NCBI GenBank assembly: GCA_964016885.1
Contig: OZ024740.1
Location: forward strand, 250,604,001-250,668,000
Reading direction: 5' to 3'
From: Eledone cirrhosa
Taxonomy: Eukaryota
DNA length: 64,000 nucleotides
Made by a program: the position numbers and the translations under genes. Positions 11,656-13,665 of the stretch are shown here, in pieces; position 1 is the first letter of the stretch, and each line of letters starts with the position of its first letter. Below the pieces are notes generated by a model. That model worked only from the letters and a program-made list of their open reading frames with translations. It did not search any database and was not told the DNA's origin.

Positions 11656-12612
11656 TCTTTTTACATTTCTCCGATGGTTATAAACCCCACTATCAGGCTA
11701 GAAATTTCTTTAGTCTAAAATACGGTGAAAGCTTATAATTTCTAATTTCTAATTTCAAACTCGCGCACCGTTTCAAAAACATACTTACATGTTTACGTTT
11801 ATAATTTGCTTGTTTAATATATATATATATATATATATATATATATATATATATATATATATATATATATATATATATATATATATATATATATACATAT
11901 ATATATACATATATATACACACACACATATATATATATATATATATATATATACACATATATATACATATATATATACATATATATACACACACAAATAT
12001 ATATATATATATATATACACATATATATATATATATATATATATATATATATATTTAAAAGAATAGAGGTGTAACACACAAGTTATGATATATTGGTATA
12101 TATATATATATATATTTTTACATATATATATATATATACATATATATATATGTAGAAGAAGTTAGTAAGCCCGTGGGTACTAAGTACCCCTGGAAATACA
12201 TAGGTTGTCTATGATTTAAGGTTGTTCTATGGTATCAATTTGACATACCAGAACTATAATATTAATATAAGCAGAACAAGCAAAATTCAACCAATAATAT
12301 TATAGTTCTGGTATGTCAAATTGATACCATAGAACAACCTTAAATCATAGACAACCTATGTATTTCCAGGGGTACTTAGTACCCATGGGCTTACTAACTT
12401 CTTCTATCACCCTCCATTTGTTGAGAACAATCACGTTGATTCTATTTAGCTGCTATTTTTAGTAACGAAATAGACAACACGTCTATGTTTTTCCCGCTTT
12501 AACCTCGGGTAGTTCACGTACAGGTCATTTTTCGGCCTTTTGGATCTGTGCTAGCTGGCAGATAACAATATATTTTATCGTTCCTGGGTCTTTAGCCCTA
12601 GGAAAGGAAAAT

Positions 12613-12694
12613 GCTTCTCTGATGAGCCTTGATTTTCCATTAGAAATCCATTGGGTCTCTGGTGTTTTACAAGGCGAAACCGATCGGTAAGAGC
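12613..12694 (+). ncRNA. Type-I hammerhead ribozyme
   Basis: CTGATGA, P2 GCCTTG...CAAGGC, GAAA, P3 palindrome ACCGATCGGT, GTA, P1 TCT/AGA plus GC/GC. Confidence 0.85.
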
Positions 12695-13093
12695 CATATG
12701 AATAGGTAAATATTTAAATTATATTTTTTAATTTATTTTAAAAAATTGGTTGAATTTTGCTTGTTCTGCTTATATTAATATTATAGTTCTGGTATGTCAA
12801 ATTGATACCATAGAACAACCTTAAATCATAGACAACCTATGTATTTCCAGGGGTACTTAGTACCCACGGGCTTACTAACTTCTTCTATCACCCTCCATTT
12901 GTTGAGAACAATCACGTTGATTCTATTTAGCTGCTATTTTTAGTAACGAAATAGACAACACGTCTATGTTTTTCCCGCTTTAACCTCGGGTAGTTCACGT
13001 ACAGGTCATTTTTCGGCCTTTTGGATCTGTGCTAGCTGGCAGATAACAATATATTTTATCGTTCCTGGGTCTTTAGCCCTAGGAAAGGAAAAT

Positions 13094-13175
13094 GCTTCTC
13101 TGATGAGCCTTGATTTTCCATTAGAAATCCATTGGGTCTCTGGTGTTTTACAAGGCGAAACCGATCGGTAAGAGC
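13094..13175 (+). ncRNA. Type-I hammerhead ribozyme (second unit)
   Basis: Identical to 12613-12694. Confidence 0.85.
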
Positions 13176-13665
13176 CATATGAATAGGTAAATATTTAAAT
13201 TATATTTTTTAATTTATTTTAAAAAATTGGTTGAATTTTGCTTGTTCTGCTTATATATATATATATATATATATGTATATATATGTATATATATATATAT
13301 ATATATATATATATATATATATATATATATATATATATATATATATATATATATATGTATACCACAACCCCACTCTCAAGAGCGTGAAACTAATAAACCT
13401 TTGTTCGTACTGCCTTTCTGTTTTGTTCCCGTTCAATATTTTACTATATATACATATATATACATACATATATATATATATATATATATATATATATATA
13501 TATATATATATATATATATATATATATATATACATATATATATATATATATATATGTATATATATATATATATATGTATATATATATATGTGTATATATA
13601 TGTATATATATATATATATATACGATATTAAACAAATGGAAACTATATTTATAAAACCATATTTA

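Follow-up and report, generated by a model that had tools for sequence, protein, structure and literature searches.

Element A (positions 12153-13256 of the window, the whole 64-kb stretch of DNA that was analyzed) is, as judged from its sequence, a non-LTR-retrozyme-like element that bears the insertion footprint of Penelope-like elements (PLEs) and works like a non-autonomous PLE. Its ends suggest that PLEs copied it into the genome as a ready-made dimer. Insertion very probably followed the PLE two-primer route, with the multimer being made at insertion in one recent event. The parts of the element are listed below, where "cut" denotes the predicted hammerhead cleavage site, and S and L denote the short and long 3' ends, respectively.

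11817 to 12152, no strand: left (TA)n target tract, interrupted near 12056-12098 by an unrelated piece of about 45 bp
12153 to 12295, minus strand: inverted arm, covering cut+56..+198 in the RNA sense; contains the unit junction but no hammerhead
12153 to 12264, minus strand: "tail" part of the arm, cut+87..+198, reaching L; TA microhomology with (TA)n
12295 to 12775, plus strand: unit 1, 481 bp, from cut+87 onward; shares base 12295 with the arm (1-nt overlap)
12776 to 13256, plus strand: unit 2, 481 bp, ending at S, cut+81..86
12613 to 12694, plus strand: hammerhead motif 1, type I, core at 12619, predicted cut after 12689, palindromic stem III
13094 to 13175, plus strand: hammerhead motif 2, type I, core at 13100, predicted cut after 13170
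12690 to 13170, plus strand: cut-to-cut monomer, 481 nt, 35.6% GC, candidate circular RNA
12700 to 12766, plus strand: predicted A/U-rich hairpin, cut+11..+77, also predicted in paralog B
13252 to 13359, no strand: right (TA)n target tract

The original prediction had placed a retrozyme-like dimer of 481-bp units here, and we recovered it as a tandem with a period of 481 and 2.0 copies (12295-13256), with a hammerhead in each unit. The sole mismatch between the units is T at 12386 versus C at 12867, in a CpG context. The (TA)n expected on both sides was found at 11817-12151 and from 13252. An inverted leader of about 140 bp had also been announced; 12153-12295 proved to be the exact reverse complement of 12745-12887 over 143 bp, and arm and array are 99-100% identical. 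This "leader" is the inverted, 5'-truncated, tailed copy already known from PLEs. The array does begin and end away from the cleavage site, starting at cut+87 and ending at cut+81..86, which gives 2.00 units; the position of S is ambiguous because unit 2 ends in TATAT. The arm covers cut+56..+198, and its outer end L, at +196..198, lies about 112-115 nt past S. Beyond the tandem, no long direct terminal repeat was found in A, and there are no LTRs.

Both consecutive units contain a complete type I hammerhead motif. The positions first given for the hammerheads, 12613 and 13094, hold as the stem I starts; the CTGATGA cores begin at 12619 and 13100, and the predicted cuts follow GTA at 12689 and 13170. 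Stem I has 5 bp and one bulge, helix II is long with a proximal stem II of 6 bp, and stem III sits within a perfect 10-nt palindrome. A motif descriptor gave 25 hammerhead matches in the window, whereas 30 shuffled windows averaged 0.1; none of 2000 shuffles of the A unit yielded a full-score motif. Rfam gave no match at the gathering score in the window; the 69 weak matches by E-value in 10500-14000 included no hammerhead family and amounted to hairpin and microsatellite noise. The lone motif reaches its minimum energy in a fold other than the hammerhead (−24.5 vs. −20.9 kcal/mol). As a dimer duplex, the stem III palindrome reached −16.6 kcal/mol, as compared with −0.9 as a hairpin, and a dimer-type design of this sort has been reported for PLE and animal hammerheads (PMC4209133, accessible text).

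Double cleavage would release the 481-nt monomer 12690-13170. The circular fold of this monomer had a z value of −3.4, with none of 40 shuffles as low; its paired fraction (61% vs. 58% in 40 shuffles; 56% vs. 57% for B) was hardly above that of the shuffles. In A and B alike, S lies at the 3' foot of the predicted A/U-rich hairpin, and the inner end of the arm lies at the base of its apical stem. This hairpin, located 3' of the cut, is a candidate protein-binding site.

The absence of an ORF from A was borne out. In the unit read as a circle, the longest ATG ORF has 40 aa and the longest stop-free frame 74 aa, and tblastn of 120 PLE-like proteins against A returned no match. A PLE profile (see below) had no match between 10243 and 19902, and the RT/GIY-YIG ORF of an autonomous PLE was not found in A. 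Within the 64-kb window, we found no autonomous PLE with a pLTR matching A and no sequence shared between the A unit and any coding element or its terminus. The unit had no match in phages or plasmids, and a sigma-70 promoter scan, of no relevance to a eukaryote, stayed at chance level. ARAGORN called no tRNA; the stretch 11603-11660, between TA tracts, resembles a tRNA-like box B.

With a unit of a few hundred bp (481) and a GC content below 50% (35.6%), A resembles the retrozymes, and by its sequence it fits the definition of a non-LTR retrozyme. In the accessible parts of the literature, the units of metazoan non-LTR retrozymes measure 150-450 bp (PMC7229834) or 51-972 bp (10.64898/2026.07.22.740005); the A unit slightly exceeds the first range and falls within the second. 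Shared with these elements are the tandem non-coding units, a type I hammerhead in each of them, the low GC content, and the PLEs alongside. A differs in its long helix II and short helix I, which are more like PLE variants, and in its inverted arm, tail, and register-locked ends, of which the accessible text makes no mention.

A paralog in the same window, B, allowed the breakpoints to be compared.

30367 to 32437, minus strand: paralog B, 483-bp unit, array 31803->30367 with 2.97 units, (TA)n on both sides
31813 to 32437: inverted arm of B, 625 bp, one unit + 142 nt, with a 9-nt filler at the junction

A and B are collinear (alignment score −152 vs. −275 ± 20 for 100 shuffles) at about 56% identity (305 of 548 columns). 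Relative to the cut, the breakpoints of B are +76..80 for S, +184..188 for L, +47 for the arm start, and +93 for the array start. When the two are aligned, S falls at the same position in both, the arm starts differ by about 2 nt, L by 5-9 nt, and the array starts by about 12 nt. The four breakpoints occupy approximately homologous places in the two elements. Under a uniform distribution, the phase coincidence of the inner ends would have a chance of about 0.001, for n = 2 and a test made post hoc. The arms measure 143 nt in A and one unit + 142 nt in B, and none of the six cut junctions in A and B contains an indel. A word shared at the inversion centers (AGTT/GTTGAA) was dropped, as in element I it is simply a product of the junction.

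Published PLE insertions consist of a partial tandem, an adjacent inverted 5'-truncated copy, and a tail of 30-40 bp at one end (PMC8557442, PMC3846280, accessible text). A has the inverted 5'-truncated copy directly at its 5' end, the tail extension at one end, and an internal 3' end that passes the hammerhead cut (cut+81..86) into (TA)n. It is like the EN+ PLE insertions Penelope, Pen2a_Av, and Poseidon_Ac in its tandem with adjacent inverted copy and one-end tail, in having its 3' end some 85 nt downstream of the hammerhead cut, and in its AT-rich target (PMC8557442, PMC3846280, PMC11167929, PMC2377424, as far as these texts were accessible). For comparison, PLE reverse transcription has been described to start 111-118 nt into the ORF, with the cut at +26 (PMC11167929, accessible text), and subtraction places the start 85-92 nt past the cut. 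A differs from the EN+ insertions in having no RT/GIY-YIG ORF, in its tail (about 112-115 vs. 30-40 nt), in its whole-unit tandem without terminal redundancy, and in the absence of a hammerhead from the arm. The Chlamys non-autonomous PLEs, such as MRC1, are likewise non-coding with multicopy head-to-tail insertions; they belong to green algae, mostly lack a hammerhead, and target (C)n or (CA)n (PMC8557442, accessible text).

The window itself is animal-like, microsatellite-rich DNA packed with PLE debris. The PLE profile, built from 69 of 120 homologs of the 59024-60445 ORF, had 37 matches across it; two named homologs belong to a bryozoan and a coral. Among the ORF remnants, the motifs DKT, RWR, CxCx5C, CxxC, and CxH are seen. 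Element H carries RWR, DKT, CNCRNRADC, CDLC, and CKH, and CxCx5C was found in five of the seven pieces checked. Pfam named no PLE RT among 32 ORFs (two weak, sub-cut-off GIY-YIG matches and one RVT_1 from a LINE) and gave nothing useful for six further proteins. No related structure emerged from a comparison of solved structures with a full-length homolog, and 52 pattern matches to the H ORF in bacterial and archaeal genomes included no confirmed relative. The Hydra clade is characterized by a C-terminal GIY-YIG, DKT, an RWK-like motif, a CxCX5C linker, CxxC, CxH, and a (TA)n target (PMC8557442, accessible text). By these motifs and the (TA)n target, the ORF remnants, which are neighboring candidates for the helper of A, match Hydra-clade PLEs. 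The (TA)n targeting and the canonical hammerheads of this clade (PMC8557442, accessible text) recur in A, and in the window Hydra-motif ORF remnants are abundant and have the two-end geometry in common with A; the A unit differs in having no sequence match to the coding-element termini there. A near-complete representative was located as follows.

57953 to 63803: near-complete, broken Hydra-type PLE, partial tandem on the minus strand (long end) and 2.07-kb inverted arm (short end), tail of about 89 nt

Thirteen two-armed insertions were hand-picked from inverted pairs in the window, only those with placeable ends being taken. Left aside, because an end was unplaceable or the arms pointed inward, were 23413/28827, 49761/51144, 35476-36391, 17580/17697, 57862/63858, 20717/21571, 37699/39241, and dispersed SINE-like pairs. 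The outer ends were unequal in all 13, by 57-162 nt (median 90), and PLE ORF remnants are carried by three of them (G1, F, and H). Element F ends at cut+38/+154 and G1 at cut+60/+222, the latter being counted from a weak candidate motif. The arms of F have diverged (84-98% identity), yet its geometry is as in A. In the H family, S recurs at +21..24 in four copies and L at about +113 at two termini; in the K family, the S end recurs in three copies and L at two termini. The tails measure 89 nt in H and 90 nt in Hmini. Of 24 published Hydra consensus sequences, 10 end 30-48 nt beyond the cut, 11 at 88-153 nt, two at 63-70 nt, and one at 355 nt (PMC8557442 tables as accessible; one more entry, with the motif at its 5' end, was left out of the 24). 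These ends may be a mix of S and L ends, and they hint that long tails, of which the accessible text says nothing, are general in Hydra PLEs.

Further structures in the window are recorded here as separate observations. Additional ends of the 57953-63803 PLE family occur at 17753, 18020, 18697, and 20439. At 6105-10781 lies a Hydra-like PLE with two arms, in which a long insert separates RT from endonuclease; its tail has 162 nt, and stem I of its candidate U3-A8 hammerhead is weak. The short palindromic element 11176-11459, which carries a hammerhead of the U3-A8 type, ends at cut+76 and +141, and its post-cut region resembles that of A and B; in it and in the palindromic 52024-52228 and 44077-44606, at least one arm stops about 10 nt or less from the 5' edge of the hammerhead core. 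The palindromic hammerhead elements 26060-26523 and 51577-51999 are related (about 77%), with all four arms beginning about 117-123 nt before the cut; the junction of 26060-26523 has a stuttered 12-nt repeat. A palindrome in (TA)n at 36431-36714 has unequal ends (82 nt) and no hammerhead that we could find. We take it to be SINE-like sequence, and it is possibly another RNA mobilized by the PLE machinery.

The inverted pairs at 17580-17752 and at 57862-57912 / 63858-63908 have their 3' ends facing inward across (TA)n, opposite to A, and the latter pair encloses a whole PLE. At 20255-20352, a long end of the 44077 family directly abuts the 5' end of an arm from the H family; this may be a chimeric insertion of the two families. 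GIY-YIG pieces from another kind of PLE were seen at 38371-38814 (minus strand) and 45536-45688 (plus strand), the first lacking the CxCx5C linker. On the minus strand at 2917-4964, a non-LTR RT (Pfam RVT_1, E 9e-24) is followed by a restriction-like endonuclease piece in another frame. This element, presumably R4/Dong-like, stands between two (TAT)20 tracts; the stretch 4607-5033 is repeated at 1-427.

We propose the following course for the insertion of A. The array would be transcribed, and tandem hammerheads would pair via their palindromic 10-bp stem III and excise the 481-nt monomer, which could, by analogy with known families, be ligated into a circle. The RT/GIY-YIG protein encoded by a PLE that targets (TA)n, most likely one of the Hydra clade, would bind the hairpin region 3' of the cut and nick both strands of the (TA)n tract. 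Each nick would then prime its own cDNA at a fixed internal site, S (cut+81..86) or L (cut+196..198). The ends themselves are seen in the sequence; they are taken as RT start sites because internal RT starts are described in PMC11167929. In the accessible text of that paper, a purified protein of the PLE Poseidon cleaves AT-rich DNA on both strands, extends both, and initiates at two internal sites in the RNA, which bound the tail. By the observed geometry, the S-primed cDNA would have run for 2.00 units, through two cut sites, and stopped at its starting phase, and the L-primed cDNA would have stopped after 143 nt, at cut+56. Microhomology would have joined the two cDNA 3' ends head to head, with 1 nt in A and a 9-nt stuttered filler in B. 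In L1 twin priming, two target-primed cDNAs are joined head to head to give a 5' inversion, the second primer annealing at variable internal sites and the arms having no overlap. In A, by contrast, the two sites are fixed, with a 112-nt overlap between the arms.

The nature of the template was considered next to this route. Clean passage through two cut sites requires a template that had been ligated into a circle or had stayed uncut. The original prediction had taken ends away from the cut as a sign of a circular template; this argument does not discriminate between templates, because the coding Hydra-clade PLE remnants in the window (F, G1, and H) end away from the cut too. Copies with fixed ends attached to a coding PLE had been named as evidence to the contrary. 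Fixed end positions of the PLE type were indeed found, whereas A is not attached to a coding PLE. A circle is plausible from the near-integer unit counts and the clean cut junctions, and an uncut linear multimer fits these as well. For the circle, we also counted the whole-unit arrays that stop where they began and the report that such hammerheads cut best as multimers and not as monomers (PMC7229834, PMC4209133, accessible text). We favor rolling-circle copying of a monomer circle, at roughly even odds.

If the PLE route is granted, the same two-primer insertion could have copied an uncut linear multimer, whose transcription from a parent array would begin near cut+50; we put the likelihood of this account a little short of even. 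Both cDNAs would then end near the RNA 5' end and yield near-integer arrays without a circle. In favor of this account, the arms of A and B start at the same homologous base (within about 2 nt). Inspection by eye located TATTTAAA in A at about +22..29, which we take to be a TATA-like word; B has no equally clear one. PLE promoters are placed within the pLTR (PMC2377424), uncut RNA is the main PLE substrate in vitro (PMC11167929), and eight of nine Xenopus retrozyme dimers did not cleave (10.64898/2026.07.22.740005), each according to the accessible text. The preference of such hammerheads for cutting in multimers speaks against an uncut template, as does one arm of the coding H element, which reaches about 330 nt upstream of its first hammerhead; moreover, arrays would be expected to shrink with each generation unless regenerated. 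Elsewhere in the window, inner ends are also non-random, near cut−120 in C and D and at the 5' edge of the core in I, J, and K, a pattern indicative of fixed 5' ends of the RNA or of stops at structures rather than of circles.

Our most specific version of the circular template is offered tentatively, as one that could well be wrong: a Hydra-clade PLE protein would copy a monomeric circular RNA from two primers in whole laps. The two starts would lie about 110 nt apart, and synthesis would, on the same tentative footing, stop preferentially on return to the protein-bound hairpin 3' of the cut. Such stops would give whole laps, that is, arrays of 2.00 and 2.97 units and arms of 143 nt and one unit + 142 nt.

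The arm could instead have arisen without a second primer, if one cDNA had folded back or switched template onto itself or onto an antisense strand. The segments 12153-12264 and 12295-12406 do form a palindrome with a 30-nt spacer, the filler at the B junction is stuttered, and head-to-head inversions have been read as self-priming on an antisense template (PMC3846280, accessible text). However, the arm matches unit 2 and not the adjacent unit 1 at the polymorphic base (a later CpG change would also do), and copy-back gives no reason for stopping at a family-fixed L site. The S arm outreaches the L arm in A, B, F, and G1, and the reverse holds in H, as expected for two independent cDNAs. We regard fold-back as unlikely.

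A second alternative, proposed for vertebrate retrozymes, is the insertion of a single pLTR-derived monomer that was later duplicated in place by unequal crossover (discussed in 10.64898/2026.07.22.740005, accessible text). A recent duplication would also yield near-identical units. In A, however, the arm carries the unit junction base for base, and therefore this junction was already present in the template; it retains no remnant of (TA)n, and in a precursor of 1.0 unit, recombination would have had no more than 1-5 nt of terminal redundancy to act on. In B, one unit may have been gained or lost locally. From the junction held in the arm without such a remnant, and from the lack of redundancy in a one-unit precursor, the dimer was most likely copied as such and written at insertion, not duplicated later; the crossover is highly improbable. 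Hardly credible is a TA-targeting MITE/TIR DNA element or a sequencing or assembly palindrome: inverted sequence, TA flanks, and the 99-100% arm-array identity would suit either, but the termini of A are offset by about 112-115 nt and are not inverted copies of each other as TIRs would be, the hammerheads are in register, and the same geometry occurs in elements with diverged arms (F, 84-98%).

Non-LTR retrozymes, their circles, PLEs as the likely mobilizer, and more-than-unit copying of circles are already in print, as is the inverted arm of PLEs. PLE mobilization and rolling-circle reverse transcription have been proposed for retrozymes (PMC7229834; 10.64898/2026.07.22.740005), and the published case for PLEs consists of co-occurrence and pLTR similarity in the text accessible to us. 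Our literature search, mostly among openly accessible papers, found no retrozyme array with an inverted arm and tail, no tails of about 110 nt, and no register-locked ends; the accessible parts of PMC9940879 and 10.1101/2022.05.23.493040 held nothing on insertion geometry.

These results address the question of who mobilizes animal retrozymes, and whether their tandems arise from insertion or from local amplification. In two young copies, A and B, the PLE footprint and the junction kept in the arm speak for PLE enzymes and for multimers that are made on insertion. The register-locked ends bear on the choice between a circular and a linear template, a question for PLEs themselves too. If the whole-lap copying of a circle is true, Hydra-type tails would measure 60-160 nt, and A and B would provide direct genomic evidence of animal retrozyme circles serving as a template for the PLE machinery.
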